From a virus (lineage: Duplodnaviria > Caudoviricetes): a stretch of 64,000 nt of DNA. The notes beneath the pieces are model-generated. The model was given only the letters and a program-made list of their open reading frames with translations, was not told where the DNA came from and made no database searches. Position numbers and translations under genes: made by a program. The DNA lies in IMG/VR virus record IMGVR_UViG_3300012953_000012, positions 32,001-96,000 of that record; one strand, written 5' to 3'. Below, one piece after another: positions 48,625 to 59,486 of this stretch. The stretch's first letter is position 1; each line of letters begins with the position of its first letter.

Positions 48625-48839
48625 CCCGCTGTGACCGCTGCCCGAAGCCCCTCGGCGTCCATCGGGTGTCGTGGTTCAACCTCGACACCATCTGCACTCG
48701 CTGTCAGGCCCAGGAAGAAGCCCACCCCGACTACGCCTATGCCCGCGATGTAGAACGCAAGCGGGTACAGGTTGGTGACTACAACTTCGTTGGAGTCGGC
48801 TGGCCTGGAGTCAACGGCAGGGTGCTCCGCACCCGGTAG
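48621..48839 (+). CDS. Conserved small phage zinc-binding protein (CDRC...FNLDTICTRC...GDYNF.G.G)
   Basis: Recognisable phage family pattern. Confidence 0.65.
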   Translation: MTRCDRCPKPLGVHRVSWFNLDTICTRCQAQEEAHPDYAYARDVERKRVQVGDYNFVGVGWPGVNGRVLRTR

Positions 48840-48872
48840 ACGGGCTATCGCCTCCGACTGTTCGGAGGCGAT
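48835..48872 (+). promoter_or_regulatory. Class III motif (GGTAG-ACGGG-CTATC) plus 11-bp hairpin covering the SD
   Basis: ATCGCCTCCGA-CTGT-TCGGAGGCGAT (48847-48872); GGAGG 48864-48868. Confidence 0.8.
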
Positions 48873-48876
48873 GCTC

Positions 48877-50046
48877 GTGAGCCGTGAGATCCAGATAGGA
48901 CACCCGTGCCCGCACCTCATCATTGAGGAGGTGGTCGCGTTAGGGGCGGATAAGAAATCACTGTCCACCCGTGCGCCTGTGTCATCAGCCAACAGCGTCA
49001 GGATCCTGGTCAACAATCAGGTCTATGTGCCGCCTGGGGGCCTCTACTCCAAAGCCATTCTTTCGGGAAGCGTGGGTCCTTACCGCATTGAGAAATGCGT
49101 GGGGTTCGCAGGACCGGAAGGCAACACTCTCACCGTGACGGCCTCGCAAGGGACTGTGACCGTTGACCTCCCCCTGTCGCAACGCCTCAGCGTGGATCGG
49201 CTGGTCCGCGCCTTGAAGTTGACGCCTCTGGATGGTCTGGTTGGGATCACCAGCGTCAACGGCTCGGTGACGTTCACGGACAACCACGCCACAGGCTCGG
49301 AGTCCGTGGTCAAGGTCAGCGGCGACGGTGCCGATTCTTTGGGTTTCGTTCAACGGGGGGCTCGCGGGCGAGAAATCTATCCGGGGTGGACCCTGGTTTC
49401 GCGACCGGACGTGCTTCCGAGTGCTGATCTGCGCGGGCTGTTCCCTGTTCCTGCCCGGTATCCTCGCTTCAAGAAGCCGGTTCCCAACGGGTCGGACTTC
49501 AAGGTCACCTACACCGCGATGCCCGAGAGGTGTCCCCGGTGCCAGGCCACCTACATCGAGAACGACTACCGCTTCAACCAGATGGGCGAGGTACGGACCA
49601 TCATCAACGAAGACCTCCTCTATCAGGCGTGCTTGAAAGCGATCCTGACGAGGAAGGGGTCGAACCCGTACCACACAGGCTATGGATCCTCCATCATGAC
49701 CCGTGTCGGGCGCAAGCGGATGGCAGCAGCCGCTGGAGCCATCCGGCAGGACATTATCCAGGCACTCCGAGGGGTCCAGGGCATTCAAGGAGGTCAGCGG
49801 AAGTTCCAGCAGGTGACTGACCGAGAGAGGCTGTACCGCGTCGAGGATGTGTCCGTGACCCCCACGGATGATCCCACGGTCGTGCGTGTCGGTGTGGTCG
49901 TCGTCAACGGCAGCAACCAACCTGTATCGCTGAACATCGTCTACTCGGCTCCGGGGGCGATAGCCCTCGCTGGGTCCAACGGTCAGTCCCTCGGGGTCTC
50001 GGGTCTGTCGCAATCCCAAACACGACGCTTCCTGATGGACGGGTAG
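48877..50046 (+). CDS. Baseplate wedge protein with C-terminal gp25/W-like domain
   Basis: LYQACLKAILTRKGSNPYHTGYGSSI...IIQAL...RVEDVSV...VVRVGVVV is gp25-like; precedes baseplate J. Confidence 0.75.
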   Translation: MSREIQIGHPCPHLIIEEVVALGADKKSLSTRAPVSSANSVRILVNNQVYVPPGGLYSKAILSGSVGPYRIEKCVGFAGPEGNTLTVTASQGTVTVDLPLSQRLSVDRLVRALKLTPLDGLVGITSVNGSVTFTDNHATGSESVVKVSGDGADSLGFVQRGARGREIYPGWTLVSRPDVLPSADLRGLFPVPARYPRFKKPVPNGSDFKVTYTAMPERCPRCQATYIENDYRFNQMGEVRTIINEDLLYQACLKAILTRKGSNPYHTGYGSSIMTRVGRKRMAAAAGAIRQDIIQALRGVQGIQGGQRKFQQVTDRERLYRVEDVSVTPTDDPTVVRVGVVVVNGSNQPVSLNIVYSAPGAIALAGSNGQSLGVSGLSQSQTRRFLMDG

Positions 50047-50055
50047 AGGTAAGGC

Positions 50056-53000
50056 ATGTCAGACACATTGATCTACAGCCCGGACGGCAAACTCACGCAA
50101 ACGGTCAACTTCAGCACCACGCGGCAGACCCGATTCTTTGAGGGGGTCCTCCCTCAGGACGCTGCGGAAGTGCTGGTCTCCATCAACGGGAGTGGGTTTT
50201 CCAGTGATGAGAGCCTGGTCCAGTGGGGGGACGGGGTGTGGACCATCCCCAGCCCGCTCTATGAGCCGGACGGGTTGGTCCTCCTGGAGGGAGTCAACAC
50301 GGTCGAGATCAAAGCCATCCTCGGCAACGGCTCCGCGACCCCGACAGCCAGCGCGACGGTTCGCCTCACCACTGACCAGGATGTGCTCCTGACCGTGGGG
50401 TCACCGACCAACATTTCCATGACGCAGGAGAACGACACCGTCACCGTGCGGGCCGAAGCCCCTGAGACAGCAGACGGGTTCCAGGGCATGAACTACTACG
50501 CCTCGGCAAACGCCGGGGGAGGGGTCAGCGGCTACACCCGGATCAACGTGTCGCTGGTGGCCGATGGCCTCGCCCGGCAGGAGGTCCAGCAGTTTGCCGC
50601 ACAAGCGGTGGACCTCCCCGTGCAAGTGGATGCTGACGGCAACCCGACAGCCGATCCGATGTACTACCGCCTCACAGGCCGACAGGAGGACGAAGACGAA
50701 GGGGTGCTCGTCACCGACTACAATGAGCGGTACGAGGTCCCTGAGACAGCCCGGACCATCCGCTTGAACATGACCTTGGACCAGGTGCGGGACGTGGTCT
50801 CCTACGACTTCACCCACAACCGCTCAGGCTCCCCGCAGTCCACCCCGGCGACCGTCCGGGTGAGTGAGTTTGTCAACCTGAGCCCCTCTTCGCCCCTCTA
50901 CTACGTCGTCACAGCAGTCTTCTACGACCGGGTGACGGACACTGAGTACGAGTCGGCATACTCAGCCGAGGTTGTAGGCCAGCCTATGCAGGTGACGACG
51001 GCCATCGGATCGATCCCAACGGTCTCTCGTCAGAACATCGTCACGCAGTTCGTCAGGGCCATCTTCCGATCCAACCCTCAGATCAAGGTCGAGGCCGGGT
51101 CAGTGCTCCGGGACACGGTGATCGATCCGTACTCCTCCGAGAGTGAGCGGCTGCGGTTCCTGCTGGATTTCTACCAGCGTGCGAGAACCCCGACACTACT
51201 CCTCCAGATCGATGACCCCACCGCCAGTGGGACCAGCATCCCTGTGGCACAGTCCTCCTACAAGCAAGCACTCCAGTCGGCGCTGTACCTGGACAATGCC
51301 CTCGCCACACAAGGGCTGATTGACTCGGCCTTTGAGTCGTATGCCAGCAACTTCGGCCTTCAGCGGAAGTCCGGGATCGGTGCGCGTGGTGAGGTGCTGT
51401 TTTTCACCCGCACCAAACCACAGTCCTCCCTCGTGATCCCGTTGGGGACGATTGTGTCTGGCGGGGGTTCCAACTTCGCCACCTCAAGGGCCGCATCCAT
51501 CTCGTCGGCCCAGATCGCTTCCTACTACAACCCGGTCAACGGCTACTATCAGATCTCAGTGCCGGTCCAGGCCACGACAACAGGGTCGAACACCAACGTC
51601 GGCACCGGCCAGATCACGAGCGTGATCTCCACCCTCGGTGTCTCCCTGTCCGTCACCAACCTGGCAGCGATGATTGGGGGGCGGGATGGGGAGTCGAACC
51701 TCTCATTGACGGCGCGAGTCCAGAACCGCCTGGCCTCTGTGGACTCGGGAACGGAGCGTGGGTACTTGCAGACAGCAGCGGACGTTCCGGGCGTGGTCAA
51801 GGCCAATGTCGTGGCAGCGGGCAACCCCCTCATGCAGCGCGATCTCAATGCAGACGGGCAACACATGGGCGGCAAGGTGGACATCTGGGTGCAAGGCACC
51901 AATCTGGCATCGTTGACTGACAACTTCGCCTTCACCTTTGAGATCGCCCAGGACATCCAGTTTCAGATCCTCAGTGTGCCGGACCTGACGTTCCGGGCGT
52001 TGGACCCTGACCTGTCATCGGCTGACCCCATCGTTGAGATGCTGGATGACCCGGACATCGGGTATGAGATGAGAAACGCATCCACGGGCGAGGTCTTTGA
52101 TCTCGCTGGGGTCAAGGTGCTTTCCTATGACACCATCCAGTTGGACACCTCGGTCTCTCAGCCAGCCGTGGACCTCACCGACGTGGTCCTGGCCTCGTAC
52201 CGGCGGCGAACAGGAAGTAAGTTTGTCCTCCTGCGGCAGCCTGCTGAGGAGATCGTCTCTGTCGTGGGGTCGGTCAGCGGGACTCTCCCTACTGATTCCT
52301 ATCTCCTGAACCACCCCGATGCCCCCCTCGCTTACGGGCGCTCCACCCTGGCCGAGGACTCCCTTCAGATCGACGGTTACAGGGACGCGAATGGCAACAC
52401 CATTCCCAGCGGGGACAGCATCACGGTGACGGACGAGCCTCATGTCATGGTCGGCCAGTACGCTGAGTTCCTGGACAGCCTGGGGGCCAACTACTTGACC
52501 ATCGTGGTCAAGAGCGCGGACGGACTCATCACCTACAACGGACCCAACGACCCTTCCGGTGCGCCGGACTACCAGGTGACCCTGGGGACGCAGACCGTAG
52601 CAGTGAGCATCACCCGGACAGACGCGAGCACGATCCCCAACGGGGCTTCCGTGCTGGTCTCCTACGAGCACGACGAGAACTTCACCGTCACCTACACTAC
52701 GAATCTCATTGTCTCCACCACCCAGAACGCGGTTGACTTGCAGAAGCACGCGACCGCTGATGTAGTGGTGAAGGACGCCATCCCGGCCCCTCTCGACATT
52801 GAGGCAACGGTGGTCGTGCGGCAGGGGCGTGAGACCTCAAAGGTGGACGCGGACCTGCGAACCAACATGGCCACCTTCTTCACCAATCTGCGCCTGGGTG
52901 ATCCCGTCCGGCAGTCGGACATCATCGACGTCATCGAGCAGACCAGTGGAGTCTCGTATGTGGTGGTCCCCCTGAACCTGTTGGCCCGCTCGACTGGAAG

Positions 53001-53517
53001 CACAGTCGTTCGGGAAGACATTTCCACGGACACCGTGTCGGAGAGCGTCCTGCTGACGTCCCTCTCGTCCAACCAAAGCATCGTCTACATCCTCACTGAG
53101 AACCTCTCAGCGGCTACCGTCAACGGTGGTGGGGGAGCCGGTGAGTTCCGGGCCGTCTTCCAGGACGAGGTCGAGATGAACCTGCTTCCGGCAGCCGCCA
53201 CACTGGTGACACTGGGCACGGAACCCGGCTCATCCTACATCGTCGGAAGTGATGGTGTGGTGATCGAAGGGTACTCGGATGACGAGACCTTGAAGACGCA
53301 AGGCTACGTTACGGACAAGGCCATCACCCAGCAGCGCAGGGCACTGACCGCGAACCGGGTGTTGGTATCTGTCACCCCTGGTGATGCTCCCACAGAGCAC
53401 CAGTACGCTACCACCTATGTGGTGGGGGAGGGCGCTGGAGCCAGGAACGTCGAGCCTGGTGGTGCGGAGTACTGCACCGAAGGCTTCCTCACATTCACCT
53501 ACGACGAGGATCGGTGA
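50056..53517 (+). CDS. Baseplate J-like (gp6/gp47-type) protein with N-terminal Ig/Fn-like extension
   Basis: GSVLRDTVIDP, ARGEVLFF, VIPLGTIV, VPVQATTTGSNTNVGTGQI, GGRDGESNLSLTARV...SGTERGY. Confidence 0.88.
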   Translation: MSDTLIYSPDGKLTQTVNFSTTRQTRFFEGVLPQDAAEVLVSINGSGFSSDESLVQWGDGVWTIPSPLYEPDGLVLLEGVNTVEIKAILGNGSATPTASATVRLTTDQDVLLTVGSPTNISMTQENDTVTVRAEAPETADGFQGMNYYASANAGGGVSGYTRINVSLVADGLARQEVQQFAAQAVDLPVQVDADGNPTADPMYYRLTGRQEDEDEGVLVTDYNERYEVPETARTIRLNMTLDQVRDVVSYDFTHNRSGSPQSTPATVRVSEFVNLSPSSPLYYVVTAVFYDRVTDTEYESAYSAEVVGQPMQVTTAIGSIPTVSRQNIVTQFVRAIFRSNPQIKVEAGSVLRDTVIDPYSSESERLRFLLDFYQRARTPTLLLQIDDPTASGTSIPVAQSSYKQALQSALYLDNALATQGLIDSAFESYASNFGLQRKSGIGARGEVLFFTRTKPQSSLVIPLGTIVSGGGSNFATSRAASISSAQIASYYNPVNGYYQISVPVQATTTGSNTNVGTGQITSVISTLGVSLSVTNLAAMIGGRDGESNLSLTARVQNRLASVDSGTERGYLQTAADVPGVVKANVVAAGNPLMQRDLNADGQHMGGKVDIWVQGTNLASLTDNFAFTFEIAQDIQFQILSVPDLTFRALDPDLSSADPIVEMLDDPDIGYEMRNASTGEVFDLAGVKVLSYDTIQLDTSVSQPAVDLTDVVLASYRRRTGSKFVLLRQPAEEIVSVVGSVSGTLPTDSYLLNHPDAPLAYGRSTLAEDSLQIDGYRDANGNTIPSGDSITVTDEPHVMVGQYAEFLDSLGANYLTIVVKSADGLITYNGPNDPSGAPDYQVTLGTQTVAVSITRTDASTIPNGASVLVSYEHDENFTVTYTTNLIVSTTQNAVDLQKHATADVVVKDAIPAPLDIEATVVVRQGRETSKVDADLRTNMATFFTNLRLGDPVRQSDIIDVIEQTSGVSYVVVPLNLLARSTGSTVVREDISTDTVSESVLLTSLSSNQSIVYILTENLSAATVNGGGGAGEFRAVFQDEVEMNLLPAAATLVTLGTEPGSSYIVGSDGVVIEGYSDDETLKTQGYVTDKAITQQRRALTANRVLVSVTPGDAPTEHQYATTYVVGEGAGARNVEPGGAEYCTEGFLTFTYDEDR

Positions 53518-54482
53518 TGGGCGACGAACTTCATGTCTACGACTTCGACGGGACTCTGTTCCGCAGTCCCCACGCCCCAGCGGTGTGGGACGGCGATTGG
53601 TGGAGTGATCCCGCGAGCCTGCTGCCTCCGTGCGTACCTGAGAAGCCTGGCCCAGCCTGGTGGATTTCTCCGACCGTGGGATCAGCCAAACAGTCGATCT
53701 CCAACTCGGATGTCTTCGCCATTATGATGACCGGACGCCGGGACGCATCTGCCTTCCGCTACCGGGTGCCGGAACTGCTGAAGCAAAAGGGACTCAACTT
53801 CGACGCGGTGCATCTGGCGCAAGGGTCAGGCGACTCGCTGATGGGCAAGATCAAGACCATCAGCAAGTACCTCGCCCGTTACCCGAACATCGACACGGTG
53901 CGGATCTGGGACGACCGGGGGAGCCACCTCCGCAAGTTCAAGAGCCTCCTGGAGCGTGAGGGCTACACTGTCCACATCGACCATGTCCGGGCGAAGTCAG
54001 CCGATCCGCTGTGCAGCGAGATGGACTTCGCTCAGAAGGACACTCCGAAGCAGAAGCCTTCCTACATCGGGGTCTTCCTGGACGCCCGAAGCAAGGCTGC
54101 TCTCGTGAATGAATACAACCTGGCCCACGACAAGGTGAAGACCGACCATGTGACCCTGGGGTTCAAGTTGACCCCAGACCTGGAAGCCATGATCGGGCAG
54201 CCCGTCAAGATGCAGGTGGTCGGCTACGCTGACGATGATCTCGGACAGGCGGTCGCCGTGGACCTTCCGGGCGATGTCCCCTTCGCGAAGAAGGGCATCC
54301 CGCATGTGACCCTGACGCACGACAGGTCAGTGGGGCCGAAGTACAGCAACCAACTACTGGCGGGTGGTCACGACGGAAAGCGCGGACCTGCCTTGACTGG
54401 GATCATCGACACGTTCCCACGGAGGCTCACTCGCAGAACGGCATCGGCGGCTCGGGTGGCTGCACTGCATAAGCGTCGTTGA
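53517..54482 (+). CDS. HAD phosphatase (Swiss-army-knife RNA-repair type) fused to 2H phosphoesterase
   Basis: VYDFDGTLFRSP, MTGR, IWDDR; two HxT motifs DHVTLGF and PHVTLTH. Confidence 0.8.
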   Translation: MGDELHVYDFDGTLFRSPHAPAVWDGDWWSDPASLLPPCVPEKPGPAWWISPTVGSAKQSISNSDVFAIMMTGRRDASAFRYRVPELLKQKGLNFDAVHLAQGSGDSLMGKIKTISKYLARYPNIDTVRIWDDRGSHLRKFKSLLEREGYTVHIDHVRAKSADPLCSEMDFAQKDTPKQKPSYIGVFLDARSKAALVNEYNLAHDKVKTDHVTLGFKLTPDLEAMIGQPVKMQVVGYADDDLGQAVAVDLPGDVPFAKKGIPHVTLTHDRSVGPKYSNQLLAGGHDGKRGPALTGIIDTFPRRLTRRTASAARVAALHKRR

Positions 54483-54843
54483 TCTCTGCCACGCGAGGAT
54501 CATCGACCCCCAGACCCCGGCACCACGACACTCCCTTGTAGGTGTCAGTCGGTGTCCAGTGGCAACGAGCCTCACCACGCTTGCCCTTCTTCAAGGCTCG
54601 CTCTGCTTTGAGGGCTTCGGAGCGGTCAGCGTAGGGTCCGTAGATGGCCTTCAGTTTCCATGGGCGGTGCTTGCTCGTGTAGCGGCCTCCCCCGACGATC
54701 TCCCCGTTGTGCTGCCGTAGGCGGCGCTTCGGGTCGGTGGTCATGCCGACGTAGTGGAACCCTGGCAGGGGTTTGCCTCGCTTGCCAACGCGAACCTGCT
54801 GGCTCTGGATGACGTAGACGAAGTACGGCTTGGGGTCACCCAT
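54427..54843 (-). CDS. GIY-YIG nuclease, SLX1-like
   Basis: YFVYVIQS...HYVGMTTDPKRRLRQHNGEIVGGGRYTSKHRPW...EALKAE. Confidence 0.88.
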   Translation of the reverse strand: MGDPKPYFVYVIQSQQVRVGKRGKPLPGFHYVGMTTDPKRRLRQHNGEIVGGGRYTSKHRPWKLKAIYGPYADRSEALKAERALKKGKRGEARCHWTPTDTYKGVSWCRGLGVDDPRVAEINDAYAVQPPEPPMPFCE

Positions 54844-55198
54844 CGTCCTTCCCTGTTGCTGGTCGAGGCACCGCGCTCTCTACGTCCACGACAGCACGAG
54901 CAGTCTTCGCTGCACGGCCTCGCCTGACAGACGCAGCACGAATCTGAGACCCCACAGGGCCAGCGTCGATCTCACAAGCCACGGAGCAGAAGTGCTGTGG
55001 CTTGACATCGTAGTGGGCGTAAGGCCGACCACAGACGAGACAGTCAGAGGTCGCCATAGCCATCAGTAGACGCAACGCACGACAGCAAGCGTCACAAGGC
55101 CACCCACCACCATCGGAAACACCGTACCGAGACGGGTGAGGAAACCGGGGGTGAACAGGTCTGGGGGGAGGTGGGGGGACATCAGAGGCAGGCTCCAT
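54836..55198 (-). CDS. Cys-rich hypothetical protein
   Basis: CDACC, CLVCG, FCSVAC; start uncertain. Confidence 0.45.
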   Translation of the reverse strand: MEPASDVPPPPPRPVHPRFPHPSRYGVSDGGGWPCDACCRALRLLMAMATSDCLVCGRPYAHYDVKPQHFCSVACEIDAGPVGSQIRAASVRRGRAAKTARAVVDVESAVPRPATGKDDG

Positions 55199-56090
55199 CT
55201 CGCCACACCGCCGCGACCTCACGGATCATGCGGAGCATCCGGGCGACCAATGCAGGGGTCTCGCCAATCTCAGCAGCGATTTCTGACTTCCGGTAGCCGT
55301 TCACCATCAACCTGGTGCAGAGTGCGGCTACGTTGGGGTCATAGTCCCTCACCCATGCTTCGTGTCGGACCCGGTCGGTCAGACGCTGGGTAGCGGAAGC
55401 CATCTCCGAGAAGTCGTGCTGTCCCGCATCCACGGTCGCCAGATCGGCACAGGACACATCCTCCATGACCCCTTCGACATTCAGCACTCCAAACTGCTCG
55501 TTTCGGCTGAGACGGGAGTACCGGCGTCGGTAGTTGCTCACGATGCAACCGCAGACCATGTGGACGTAGTGGCCGAAGGAAGACTTGCTGGGGTCGAACG
55601 GGCACTTGCCGTTGTTTCGTACCAGCAGCCCTTTGTAGATCTCCTGGAGGACATCCTCGGGGTCGTAGCCGTACTTGATCACCCGCCTACCGTAGCCTGC
55701 GTAAAACAACTTGCGGACCTCGTGGCCCCGCTTCGCCAGGTCGATACCAGGTGCTTTGGCGATACTCAGTGCCGGGCTGGTCCTGATCTTTGGGACCGTC
55801 TTCTCGACGGTGATCTGCGGGCCGAACATCGTCAGGGTGTCCAGCGTCAAGGCAGGTTCAGGGCGTCGATGGCCCCCACGGCGGAAGTACCTGTCGAATG
55901 TGATCTTCGGATCACGGTGGTGGGGACCTGGTCGGGGGTCGCGGTTGACCAGTGCCATGATGGTCTTCCGGGCGCTCGGGTAACGGACGGAACCACTCGG
56001 CCACTGCACCAGAAATCCATTGGGGTCAGCCACAACCGGGTGGCCTCCGTGTTCAGTGCGGGCGTAGTAAGTTCCTTCCGTTCTCAGCAT
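55182..56090 (-). CDS. Phage sigma-70/ECF-like RNA polymerase sigma factor with N-terminal extension
   Basis: Region 2-like DPEDVLQEIYKGLL...FDPSKSSFGHYVHMV...NYRRR; region 4-like GYRKSEIAAEIGETPALVARML. Confidence 0.75.
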   Translation of the reverse strand: MLRTEGTYYARTEHGGHPVVADPNGFLVQWPSGSVRYPSARKTIMALVNRDPRPGPHHRDPKITFDRYFRRGGHRRPEPALTLDTLTMFGPQITVEKTVPKIRTSPALSIAKAPGIDLAKRGHEVRKLFYAGYGRRVIKYGYDPEDVLQEIYKGLLVRNNGKCPFDPSKSSFGHYVHMVCGCIVSNYRRRYSRLSRNEQFGVLNVEGVMEDVSCADLATVDAGQHDFSEMASATQRLTDRVRHEAWVRDYDPNVAALCTRLMVNGYRKSEIAAEIGETPALVARMLRMIREVAAVWRDGACL

Positions 56091-56154
56091 TGGCGATCTC
56101 CAGCGATGTCAAAGGGTGGGGCAAAATCACTCAGGGTGGTTGGTTATCCCACAA

Positions 56155-56183
56155 TACCGACACCAAGTGAAGCGTGACCCCCC
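56155..56183 (-). promoter_or_regulatory. Class II promoter-like motif GGGGGG-N18-CGGTA upstream of the sigma gene
   Basis: 21 nt spacing to TA on minus strand. Confidence 0.65.
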
Positions 56184-56209
56184 ACTATCAAGTCTTGACG
56201 GTGGGGTCG

Positions 56210-56224
56210 AATAGTTGCCCTATA
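56210..56224 (+). promoter_or_regulatory. Class III motif (AATAG-TTGCC-CTATA)
   Basis: Perfect ATAG-N5-CTAT palindrome in a divergent intergenic region. Confidence 0.6.
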
Positions 56225-56329
56225 CGCCCTCTCCCGGAGAGAGGTTTTGCCCACAAAAACCGTTGCACCTTCACCCGAGGGCGTGGCTCTGCGGCGCATC
56301 GACCGAAAACATCAGCCCGGAGCCTTTTC

Positions 56330-57577
56330 ATGCCTGACCCCACTCCGAGTCAGATCCAGCAAGCCCAGTCCAACATCAGCAACCTGATGGACTGGATCAA
56401 CCATCTGCACAACTACGAGCAGGACGTGATCAACGAGGTCTACGACCAACTGACCGTGTCCTCGCAGCACGATCCGGGGCAGGACTTCATCACCGCGATG
56501 ATGGAGGGAACGCTCAAGAGCATCGGGGCACTCCCTTTCCCAGGTGCGGGGGTGATCGCAGGGTTCACCAGCGCCTTCTTCAGCGTCTACTCCAAGACCA
56601 CGCCGCCCAGCCTCAAGGCTCAGTTTGCCTCGGTGTGGGCACGCTTCAACGCGACTTTTCTCCAGGCCAACCAGGACCTGTCGGACATCTACGCCGACGT
56701 AGCGGGGCACTGGAACGACACCTACACCGACCCTTCGGGCACCGAGTACACCATCTCCCAGATGGGGACAGGCGTGATCAGCGTCCCAGCGGACACGGCA
56801 CCTGAGTACCAGACCATGACAGACACGGCTGTGGCTGCGTACCGGGTCAGCCTCACCAGGTCCCAGATCGGAGGCAAGTGGAAGGTCCTTCAAGACACCT
56901 GCGGCATGAACATGCCTGGCTGGGACGACACGGACGCGAAGAACTGGATCCCAGGCTTCGTGAAGGACCACCCCGCCTTCTACATCCGCTACAGCAGCAT
57001 CCCCGGTGCGTGTTGCACCCCAGGGTCCGAGCAGGTCTACGAGGACCTCATCGGGCAGAGCCAACCCAACGTCTTCAATGACGGAAGCCCTGCCCCTGCC
57101 TCCTTGATGGACTGGCTCTGCAAGACGGACCAGTTTGGCAACGTCACCAACGCCAATGGCCTGGTGACCCGAGATGAGTTGTTCAACGGATGGGACGGTG
57201 CCCTCAAGACAGAAGGCTACTGCATCCCTTCCCCTGCCCCTCCGGTCCCGGTGGCTGACCCCAGCGAGCAGGACCTACGGGACGCGAAGCGTTGGCACAG
57301 GTTGTTCAAGCGCCACAAGAGACGCCGCCTGGAGTGGGGTGTCGTGAAGCGAGCCTACTCGGACGGTGACTTCTTCCATGCGCTGATGCGTGACCCCAGG
57401 GACGCGCTGGCCGACCACCTGGGAGTACCTTTCCCGGCGGGAGCCACCGTCGAGATCATCCGGGAAGAGCCCGGTCAGTACAAGTTGGTCCTGCCCCTGG
57501 CGGGTATTGACTTCAAGAAGTTCAAGAAGCACAAGAAGGGCTGGCTCCAGCGCCTGTTGGGATGGATAAAGAGATGA
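56330..57577 (+). CDS. Helical giant-virus-like/Cry-like domain fused to a C-terminal NHLP-leader (nitrile hydratase-like) domain
   Basis: IGALPFPGAGVIAGFTSAFF helix; C-terminal RRLEWGVVKRAYSDGDFFHALMRDPRDAL...GVPFPAGATVEIIREEPGQYKLVLP. Confidence 0.6.
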   Translation: MPDPTPSQIQQAQSNISNLMDWINHLHNYEQDVINEVYDQLTVSSQHDPGQDFITAMMEGTLKSIGALPFPGAGVIAGFTSAFFSVYSKTTPPSLKAQFASVWARFNATFLQANQDLSDIYADVAGHWNDTYTDPSGTEYTISQMGTGVISVPADTAPEYQTMTDTAVAAYRVSLTRSQIGGKWKVLQDTCGMNMPGWDDTDAKNWIPGFVKDHPAFYIRYSSIPGACCTPGSEQVYEDLIGQSQPNVFNDGSPAPASLMDWLCKTDQFGNVTNANGLVTRDELFNGWDGALKTEGYCIPSPAPPVPVADPSEQDLRDAKRWHRLFKRHKRRRLEWGVVKRAYSDGDFFHALMRDPRDALADHLGVPFPAGATVEIIREEPGQYKLVLPLAGIDFKKFKKHKKGWLQRLLGWIKR

Positions 57578-58584
57578 AGATTGGAATCTGGCACGAAGCA
57601 ATCGTTGGCAAACCCGCCACGGACGAGGACACCTTCAAGGACTACGCCGGGAAGTACGTCCAGTTCATCAAGGACAACGGCCTCAAGCGAGCCTTCTTCA
57701 TCCTGATGTGCCCAGACACCCCGGCAGGCACCTACGCGAAGCAGGGCTGGCTCCAGAAGTACTGGCTTGAGCAACTGCCTGCCGACTGCGAGGCCGGACT
57801 GGTGATGGACACCGAGGCTCAGTGGCCGTGGCCCGGAGCCGCGAAGACCTTTGATCCCGGCGACACGATGGAGATGGCCTTCCGGTTCGTCGATGCGATG
57901 AACAAGTCGTCGAGTGGCAAGCAGATCACCTGCCTGGCCTTCGACTACGAGAACGTCAACGTCTACTACGGCGCACAAGGCGAGGCGTGGATCGAGAAAC
58001 TGTGGAAGCAGTACTGGCCCAACGTGCCTCTCGACTACGGCTACGCACCGAAGGGTCCGCCTCCCAACGACCAGGGCAACCACTCCTACCCGGAGATCTA
58101 CTGGGTGGGTGAGATGGCTGACTGCGGTTGCACGGGCGACGAAGGCCCCAACTGCCGGTGCCCCAACACCCCCTACTGCAAGTACAACGGCGACCCCGAT
58201 GCTCTGTTGGCAGGGCCTCTGGGCGAGTACATCGAGAACCACAAGGCGTGGCTCTCCCAGGACAACGTGTGGCCCATGTTCAGCCTGGAGTCACTGTCGA
58301 AGCCCGCGTGCATCGCCGCTCCGTACACGTCCCACAACGCTTGTGGGATCATGGACGCTTTCGGCACCTGGTCGAAGGCGGACTTCCTGAAGTTCCTGGA
58401 TGCCGTGGAAGCGAAGTACGGGATCAAGCAGGCCATGATGTACGAGTGGCAGTACGTTCCCGAGAAATGGCTCACTGAGGCTGAGGTCACGGAGTACCAG
58501 GACGCCGAAGAGGTCGGTTTCTGGGGTCTGCTCAAGATGCTGTGGGGCCTGTTCACCGGCTGTTTCAAGAGAGGCAACGGGTGA
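57574..58584 (+). CDS. Putative TIM-barrel glycoside hydrolase-like (GH18-like) protein
   Basis: TCLAFDYE resembles DxDxE; Trp/Tyr/Cys-rich; ATGA overlap. Confidence 0.4.
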   Translation: MKIGIWHEAIVGKPATDEDTFKDYAGKYVQFIKDNGLKRAFFILMCPDTPAGTYAKQGWLQKYWLEQLPADCEAGLVMDTEAQWPWPGAAKTFDPGDTMEMAFRFVDAMNKSSSGKQITCLAFDYENVNVYYGAQGEAWIEKLWKQYWPNVPLDYGYAPKGPPPNDQGNHSYPEIYWVGEMADCGCTGDEGPNCRCPNTPYCKYNGDPDALLAGPLGEYIENHKAWLSQDNVWPMFSLESLSKPACIAAPYTSHNACGIMDAFGTWSKADFLKFLDAVEAKYGIKQAMMYEWQYVPEKWLTEAEVTEYQDAEEVGFWGLLKMLWGLFTGCFKRGNG

Positions 58585-58585
58585 C

Positions 58586-58720
58586 GTGGATGACTTCTGG
58601 GACGCACTGCTGAGAGGGTTGGCTGGAGATAGCAACGACCGAGAGGTCACGAAGTACTTCGTGTGGGCCGGGTCGGTCGTGATCCTCGGCCTCGTAGGGC
58701 TGCTGCTGTACACGTCCTGA
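58586..58720 (+). CDS. Small protein with C-terminal TM helix (44 aa)
   Basis: MDDFWDALL...YFVWAGSVVILGLVGLLLYTS; read manually. Confidence 0.55.
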   Translation: MDDFWDALLRGLAGDSNDREVTKYFVWAGSVVILGLVGLLLYTS

Positions 58721-58721
58721 G

Positions 58722-59486
58722 TCAGACCTGGATCTGACTGCCGCGCTCCTGCTCTCGGATGATGGCGGCCTCGATGCGTGACCAGTCGTCCTTGTGGATG
58801 ATGGTGACGCGGTGGAACATCGGGTAGCCGTTGACGCCACGAGGGAAGGAATCTTCCATGCGGCCCATGATCTCGCCAATGTCATGCCCCCACTCTGCGA
58901 AAACCTCGTCGTGGCGGGCGATCCAGTCCTTGATGGCGGTCTTGCGGGCCTCGACAGCCTCGGCGTGTTGGGGGAGGCTGGCCTTCCACGCTTCGACCGC
59001 AGCGTCGTGCGCCTCGTCAATCTCGTGACGAGTGCGGGTCTCCTCGTCCAGCGCCACCTGCCACGCCATTGAGTCGTCCTCCCATGCACGGATGCGGGCG
59101 TCGTTCGCAGCCTTGATCTCGGCGCGAATCTCGGCGATCTCGTCCTCGGTGATGTCGCCGTACTCGTAGTCGCTGACCGTCTGGTCGGGGACCTTCACCA
59201 GGACGGGCTTCTCGGGAGGGTCACCCACGGGGTCCGGGTAGCCGGGATGGGCAGGCTTGTCGGGCTCGTCGGGCAGCGACTCAGGAGGCTCGGCTGATCC
59301 CAGCACGGCCTCCCGGATTTCTCGCGGAACCTCACAGGCCCCCATCGCCACCGGCAGCATACACATGTTGCGGGTGGTGACGGGGATCTCCTGGCTGAAC
59401 ATGACCTTGCACGCGAGACGGTCCAGGACGATCTCGCGCATCTCGTCCCCGGTCAGTCGAGGGATGGGCATCCGAAGTTTGGTCAT
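58722..59486 (-). CDS. Hypothetical protein with acidic coiled-coil insert
   Basis: C-terminal PRGVNGYPMF phage motif; start ATG 59486. Confidence 0.65.
   Translation of the reverse strand: MTKLRMPIPRLTGDEMREIVLDRLACKVMFSQEIPVTTRNMCMLPVAMGACEVPREIREAVLGSAEPPESLPDEPDKPAHPGYPDPVGDPPEKPVLVKVPDQTVSDYEYGDITEDEIAEIRAEIKAANDARIRAWEDDSMAWQVALDEETRTRHEIDEAHDAAVEAWKASLPQHAEAVEARKTAIKDWIARHDEVFAEWGHDIGEIMGRMEDSFPRGVNGYPMFHRVTIIHKDDWSRIEAAIIREQERGSQIQV

Follow-up and report, generated by a model that had tools for sequence, protein, structure and literature searches.

The gene at 56330..57577 (+) of the window, the 64,000-nucleotide stretch of viral DNA analyzed here, encodes a 415-residue protein (P0001) that we read as an accessory protein of three modules, namely an N-terminal domain whose predicted fold resembles that of the Dictyostelium Cup proteins, a C-terminal domain with the fold of the nitrile-hydratase-like leaders (NHLP), and a short basic tail. 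In this reading, to which we assign a probability of roughly 40%, the protein would act as a dimeric accessory protein or effector at a membrane surface, and its Cup-like domain would bind or perturb the host membrane late in infection. We favor a dimeric membrane-surface effector because delivery appendages accompany the domain in its relatives and because the phage protein combines a cationic, Trp-rich helix with a hydrophobic helical hairpin.

The source of the window is an IMG/VR virus record of 205,564 bases with a CheckV completeness of 46%, and the GC content of the window is ~62%. A sheath initiator gene (48772-50046) and a Baseplate_J gene (50056-53517), both belonging to a contractile-tail baseplate, lie just upstream of the gene for the 415-residue protein, and thus the virus is a large myovirus-type phage. 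In the open reading frame list and its translation, the coding sequence includes the stop codon, and the coordinates, strand, and length given in a preliminary description of this DNA are correct. A Shine–Dalgarno-like GGAG, read from the sequence at 56317..56320 (+), is positioned 7 nt before the ATG, and 13 full-length homologues with 35-78% identity align from the ATG at 56330. A longer reading initiated by GTG at 56174 is unlikely because the N termini of all these homologues match the position of the ATG, which the GGAG precedes at the same 7 nt. An imperfect inverted repeat, GACCCC...GGGGTC, is present at ~56176-56206 in the divergent intergenic region upstream of the gene. A 10-mer recurrence scan of this upstream region revealed no convincing repeated motif, and a consensus scan of 55900-59000 found no promoters or terminators. 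Pfam, PHROGs, and PADLOC gave no family for the whole protein or for its residues 1-300. The AlphaFold model of the protein has a pLDDT of 86.9 and a pTM of 0.75.

The gene opens a group of three on the plus strand. The second (57574..58584, +) is translationally coupled to it through an ATGA overlap and encodes a signal-less, glycoside-hydrolase-like TIM barrel of the PgaB/Cwp19/GH18 kind with a hydrophobic C terminus. Directly after it, the ORF list and its translation place a 44-residue ORF (58586..58720, +) with a GTG start, an acidic N-terminal half, and a C-terminal hydrophobic segment; judging from these features, it may encode a small tail-anchored membrane protein, possibly holin- or spanin-like. 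The pairing with the TIM-barrel gene recurs in one related contig with 83% identity, and no TIM-barrel neighbor was found beside the closest homologue or in the bacterial and giant-virus contexts examined. In a related phage (L010, an IMG/VR contig of 180,576 bases), the gene for the 415-residue protein has been removed by a clean in-frame deletion. The remnant (L010:5986-6114) is a 42-codon ORF composed of 36 N-terminal codons, 5 C-terminal codons, and the stop codon, and it keeps the ATGA overlap with the TIM-barrel gene. The gene is therefore dispensable, which makes it an accessory gene and not an essential structural or lysis gene.

The AlphaFold model of the N-terminal domain, residues 1-300 (56330..57229, +), reveals a five-helix bundle and a β-sheet, and the net charge of residues 1-310 is −20. 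The family of this domain comprises 209 cluster representatives in an exhaustive HMMER search (E <= 0.001). In a Foldseek search against the Swiss-Prot models, nine Dictyostelium Cup paralogues matched residues 8-298 with E-values of 4e-5 to 1.4e-3 and a probability of 1.00. The region ~388-635 of the calcium up-regulated (Cup) proteins B-J of Dictyostelium discoideum superposes on these residues of the model, a comparison between predicted structures on both sides with 10-14% identity and a TM-score by query of 0.30-0.40. Judged by predicted fold, the Cup proteins are thus the closest named relatives of the domain. Cup proteins carry N-terminal lectin domains of the ricin-B type and move to the membrane under calcium stress. 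They are described as cytoplasmic lectins in a comparative genomics paper (PMC3188802). The domain is combined with lectin modules in the Cup proteins, as it is in bacterial relatives, whereas the phage protein contains no lectin or other Pfam domain and, with 415 residues, is shorter than the Cup proteins at ~634-769.

To survey the architectures of the family, HMMs were built for both the N-terminal and the NHLP domains and scanned over 161 retrieved sequences. About 50 of the ~130 representatives with the N-terminal domain carry one or two C-terminal NHLP copies, and others consist of the N-terminal domain alone. In large relatives, the domain is located after Tectonin, FG-GAP, BNR, B_lectin, and other propeller or lectin modules and before pentapeptide repeats, with PPC and a T9SS tail as further modules. 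AlphaFold-DB cluster matches add Ricin-B, VCBS, a "minor tail protein," and fungal fusions with DUF7872 and chitinases; our literature search on DUF7872 returned nothing. The appendages of the domain in its relatives are all delivery devices, that is, lectins, propellers, a secretion tag, a tail protein, or an acylation-type N terminus. The N-terminal domain hence defines a large family that has no Pfam model and that links tailed phages, bacteria, and giant viruses, and the predicted folds extend this link to the Dictyostelium Cup proteins and the fungal DUF7872 and chitinase fusions, so that amoebae and fungi probably have members as well. Establishing what any single member does would annotate hundreds of proteins, and the phage member, which is small, soluble-looking, and accompanied by a natural deletion variant, provides a convenient entry point.

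The conservation pattern of the domain bears on a different explanation of the gene. Residues N15, D48, G50, R105, W128, N274, and R281 are invariant or nearly invariant, and these conserved polar and aromatic residues could form the site of an enzyme or of a binding module for envelope glycans or lipids, which would cooperate with the neighboring TIM-barrel glycosidase in the breakdown of the cell wall or of exopolysaccharide. The co-occurrence of the domain with carbohydrate-binding modules and, in fungi, with chitinases would fit such a role, as would the coupling to the hydrolase-like barrel both here and in a related locus (L005) and the annotation of one relative as a minor tail protein. 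However, no similarity to a known enzyme fold or Pfam family was found, and the glycosidase neighbor is absent from most contexts. We consider a glycan- or lipid-directed module unlikely.

The membrane-surface reading draws on another element of the N-terminal domain. Helices α2-α3 (residues 51-89; 56480..56596, +) form its most hydrophobic hairpin, which is rich in Gly, Ala, and Ser and contains the GALPFPGAGVIAGF motif. Across 49 family members, the median Kyte–Doolittle hydropathy is 0.84 for each of α2 and α3 versus <=0 for the other helices, and the hairpin reaches a transmembrane-like value of 1.6 in only 4 of the 49. The protein could alternatively be an α-helical pore-forming toxin in which α2-α3 serves as the buried insertion hairpin, as in colicins, Cry toxins, and Bcl-2 proteins, and which oligomerizes on a membrane and kills or lyses a cell through the resulting pore. 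Besides the hairpin, which in all 49 aligned members is the domain's most hydrophobic element, this idea is consistent with lectin and propeller fusions, which are typical of targeted toxins, with the self-association predicted below, and with a faint feature-level echo of a Cry8 cluster in the Atlas (cosine of 0.75, below the lead threshold of the tool). We nevertheless regard a pore-former as doubtful. The resemblance to Cry toxin domain I that the preliminary description had suggested found no support: hmmscan run to E = 10 gave no hit to Endotoxin_N (PF03945) and listed only DUF7217 (E 0.21), and none of the PDB fold searches returned a Cry chain. These searches thus do not support an identity with Cry domain I, and the likeness between the two is only a general one, both having a hydrophobic hairpin in a bundle of helices. 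The broader suggestion of a toxin-like or membrane-active protein is compatible with the lectin fusions, the conserved, moderately hydrophobic helical hairpin, and the membrane-targeting appendages, whereas a link to Cry toxins or to a solved pore-former has neither an HMM nor a structural match.

The preliminary description had also noted a resemblance to giant-virus proteins, and for the N-terminal domain, this resemblance is borne out. In a search for related loci with a 14-row family alignment, a giant-virus MAG contig (L009, GC 23-29%) yielded a 334-residue homologue of the domain with 29% identity over 167 residues and a pairwise E-value of 9e-20, flanked by genes for a class I aminoacyl-tRNA synthetase, a tyrosinase, a kinase, and an LRR protein. 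An 80-kb contig (L011, 22-25% GC) carries a second homologue together with UvrD, dNMP kinase, Bax inhibitor, and photolyase genes. These uncharacterized proteins of the Imitervirales-type metagenomic giant viruses are true sequence homologues of the domain, although they fall into a separate clade and lack the NHLP domain and the basic tail. The BFVD fold search gave one match to an uncultured caudovirus and no confident giant-virus match. Many of the AT-rich, giant-virus-type homologues have Cys-rich or MGCC-type N termini; P0044, P0049, P0067, P0073, P0102, and P0107 start with MGCC..., MWCC..., MFCC..., or a similar Cys-rich basic stretch. On sequence grounds, these N termini resemble eukaryotic myristoylation and palmitoylation signals, which suggests membrane anchoring inside a eukaryotic host.

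In a quick maximum-likelihood tree of 111 N-terminal domains, 24 rows, 19 of them AT-rich, split off as one clade (SH-aLRT 96), and the other 87, mostly from bacteria and phages, make up a second. The phage clade has eight members (support 100) and nests among NHLP-bearing sequences, with a protein of a bacterial-type contig as its closest sister (support 85). As the phage clade is placed among bacterial NHLP-bearing sequences, bacteria are the probable source of the phage gene. If there was sharing with giant viruses, it would be ancient and not direct; the exchange between phages and giant viruses proposed earlier therefore survives at the level of the deep family only, and the separate clades argue against direct sharing.

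The second module, residues ~312-392 (57263..57505, +), is a genuine NHLP or nitrile-hydratase-alpha-like domain made up of a family-specific extra helix, a three-helix bundle, and a β-hairpin ending in LVLP, as established by TIGR03793, profile comparison, Atlas clusters, and an alignment with precursors. TIGR03793 matched residues 331-390 with an E-value of 3.2e-10 and 39.7 bits in the whole protein and with 2.2e-11 and 43.4 bits in the isolated C terminus, both scores being below the curated cut-off of 50.9 bits. Against the PDB, a profile of 49 family members gave an E-value of 1.6e-7 for 8TB1, a solved NHLP leader, and values of 1e-6 to 2e-4 for many nitrile hydratase alpha chains. In addition, Atlas clusters of NHLP precursors superpose on residues 326-397 with a TM-score of 0.56 by the hit and an rmsd of 2.7 Å over 72 residues. 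The published NHLP fold consists of a three-helix bundle, a two-strand hairpin, and a disordered tail (PMC12537861), and the helices at 331-364 and the extended segment at 365-394 of our model agree with it. The NHLP-like pattern noticed from the sequence is thus real and well beyond chance. Its unusual C-terminal position is also confirmed, but it does not occupy the last ~85 residues as first described, since a 23-residue basic, Trp-rich tail follows it.

Comparison with the known NHLP leaders of proteusin, TOMM, and lanthipeptide precursors (TIGR03793), such as the solved MprE7 (PDB 8TB1), indicates homology, as the three-helix bundle and the hairpin ending in an LVLP-type strand are shared. 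However, leaders are N-terminal, whereas the phage domain follows a 300-residue domain, has an additional N-terminal helix, and lacks the LxxxxL/Gly-Gly region, the core peptide, and the biosynthetic neighbors. The alpha subunit of nitrile hydratase (PF02979 / TIGR01323) has the same ancestral fold, and two family members pass the Pfam gathering score for NHase_alpha (PF02979), but the metal-binding insert is missing from the phage domain. The CxxCSC metal-binding motif is absent, and the Cys residues of the protein are found only at 191, 228, 229, 264, and 298. Because there is no Cys between residues 312 and 392, the domain cannot be a hydratase, and nitrile hydratase activity is ruled out. 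Stand-alone proteins of ~170-400 residues with two or four tandem NHLP-like domains were also encountered (P0047, P0104, P0119, P0120, P0130, P0132, and others); they have no N-terminal domain and are neither typical single-leader precursors nor full nitrile hydratases.

The NHLP domain is also where two copies of the protein are predicted to meet. A two-copy complex prediction passed its controls with a score of 0.56 against 0.32 for the best control. Among proteins of solved structure, this mark was attained by 20 of 30 that are pairs of one chain and by 1 of 23 that are single chains, a calibration that is only approximate here because our own alignment was used. Three complex-prediction runs shared at least 52% of their contacts, and the pLDDT of the partner was at least 63. 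All confident predicted contacts lie in residues 319-399 and mainly involve the β-hairpin 371-391 (57440..57502, +) of both copies, which forms the core of the predicted homodimer interface; in keeping with this, no strands were assigned to this hairpin in the monomer model. Speaking against the pairing, the solved leader 8TB1 is a monomer according to SAXS (PMC10858898), unlike the predicted pair of phage domains. The passing prediction is therefore not the memory of a solved dimer, and the pairing would have to be a property of the C-terminal-NHLP family. From these predictions, we infer that the domain is most likely a protein–protein module that pairs two copies via the β-hairpin. The tandem NHLP copies also fit this picture, since they could pair in cis.

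The third module, residues 393-415 (57506..57574, +), is a clade-specific tail that is basic (+8), rich in Trp and Phe, and free of Ser, Thr, and Cys. It forms an amphipathic helix at residues 395-414 of the model, with a hydrophobic moment of 0.75 on the last 11 residues. A tail of this type was found only in the eight closest homologues, including the 415-residue protein itself, where it comprises ~23 residues, is Trp/Phe-rich and amphipathic, and has a net charge of +3 to +8 with 0-2 Ser, Thr, or Cys residues.

Taken together, the modules suggest how a dimeric effector at the membrane surface might operate. The Cup-like domain of 300 residues would be the working end, a helical bundle and β-sheet with a conserved, moderately hydrophobic, Gly-rich hairpin, which in relatives appears to be brought to surfaces by lectins or β-propellers, by Cys-rich N termini of the acylation type, or by a secretion tag. 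The NHLP-fold domain would have no role as a RiPP leader and would most likely serve to pair two copies through its β-hairpin, while the basic, Trp-rich amphipathic tail would most likely hold the dimer at the host membrane, on its cytoplasmic side. At this site, the Cup-like domain would bind or perturb the membrane late in infection and might help the translationally coupled TIM-barrel glycosidase, which lacks a signal of its own, to reach the cell wall; a part in lysis is conceivable. The analysis establishes what the domains are, that RiPP features are missing, how the family is built and distributed, and that the gene is dispensable, whereas pairing (a prediction), anchoring to the membrane, activity on it, and a part in lysis are inferences.

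A bolder and improbable extension of the same idea is that the NHLP fold is primarily a self-pairing module, which dimerizes a family of membrane- or surface-directed effectors across phages, bacteria, giant viruses, amoebae, and fungi. The RiPP leaders would then be a specialized offshoot, and the Cup-like domain would represent an unrecognized membrane-attack or membrane-remodeling fold deployed by bacterial and protist viruses inside their hosts.

Genome mining takes NHLP domains as a sign of RiPP precursors. NHLP leaders occupy the N terminus, and their end is marked by a Gly-Gly cleavage site with an LxxxxL-type motif before it (PMC2887384, PMC10858898); the precursors are defined by this Gly-Gly site, a core rich in Cys, Ser, and Thr, and a neighborhood with a maturase or C39 exporter (PMC2887384). 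The genuine precursors recovered by our search follow this plan, with the LVLP strand leading into an L..D.EL..VAGG linker and then the core peptide. When aligned with them, the C-terminal-NHLP family is missing the linker and the VAGG motif, and most of its members end 2-9 residues after LVLP. The 23-residue tail of the phage protein, having no Ser, Thr, or Cys, offers no Cys/Ser/Thr core. No Radical_SAM, YcaO, Peptidase_C39, or LanC-like genes were found in the 205-kb record (CheckV 46% complete), and no maturase or C39 exporter lies within 6 kb of three bacterial homologues, which are located among housekeeping genes. The earlier remark that neither a core peptide nor a maturase is nearby is thereby confirmed in the phage record, in the bacterial contexts, and in the composition of the tail. 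Because its NHLP domain is C-terminal and no cleavage region, core, maturase, or C39 exporter was found, the 415-residue protein is not a RiPP precursor. Likewise, a decoy titrating the RiPP enzymes of the host, as proposed in the preliminary description, is unlikely, as bacterial chromosomes commonly encode this two-domain architecture without neighboring RiPP genes and the leader region recognized by enzymes and proteases is missing. Although the three-helix NHLP nucleus, which some lanthionine synthetases recognize (PMC12537861), is conserved, the C-terminal placement, the missing LxxxxL/Gly-Gly region, the composition of the tail, the family members that stop directly after the LVLP strand, and the lack of maturase or exporter genes in the record and beside the bacterial homologues make any RiPP-related role, be it an unusual precursor with a cleaved and modified tail or a decoy sequestering NHLP-recognizing maturases or exporters of the host, highly improbable.

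Our literature searches turned up neither C-terminal NHLP fusions nor NHLP proteins of phages. The NHLP fold is also a common C-terminal module of proteins of roughly 400 residues without RiPP context, where it has a second role, probably self-association; matches of this kind are therefore false positives for natural-product mining.

The surroundings of the gene contain several further features. In L010, the TIM-barrel gene is followed by genes for a 128-residue membrane protein and a PG_binding_1 protein, which together resemble a lysis cassette; the 205-kb record that contains the window yielded no match to this PG_binding endolysin or to PF01471. Between the baseplate module and the gene for the 415-residue protein lie genes for a GIY-YIG nuclease-domain protein (54427-54843, −; E 3.8e-11) and for a 302-residue protein without a family match (55182-56090, −). 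A 322-residue protein encoded at 53514-54482 (+), overlapping the end of the Baseplate_J gene, contains a HAD_SAK_1 domain (E 2.8e-20; RNA-repair "Swiss army knife" HAD), and its C-terminal half matches a PHROG of unknown function; in its relative in L005, the same HAD domain is fused to ChaC/GGACT domains. Finally, the first 26 kb of the window (152-26148) hold very large plus-strand ORFs of 1406, 1196, 1971, and 1785 residues.
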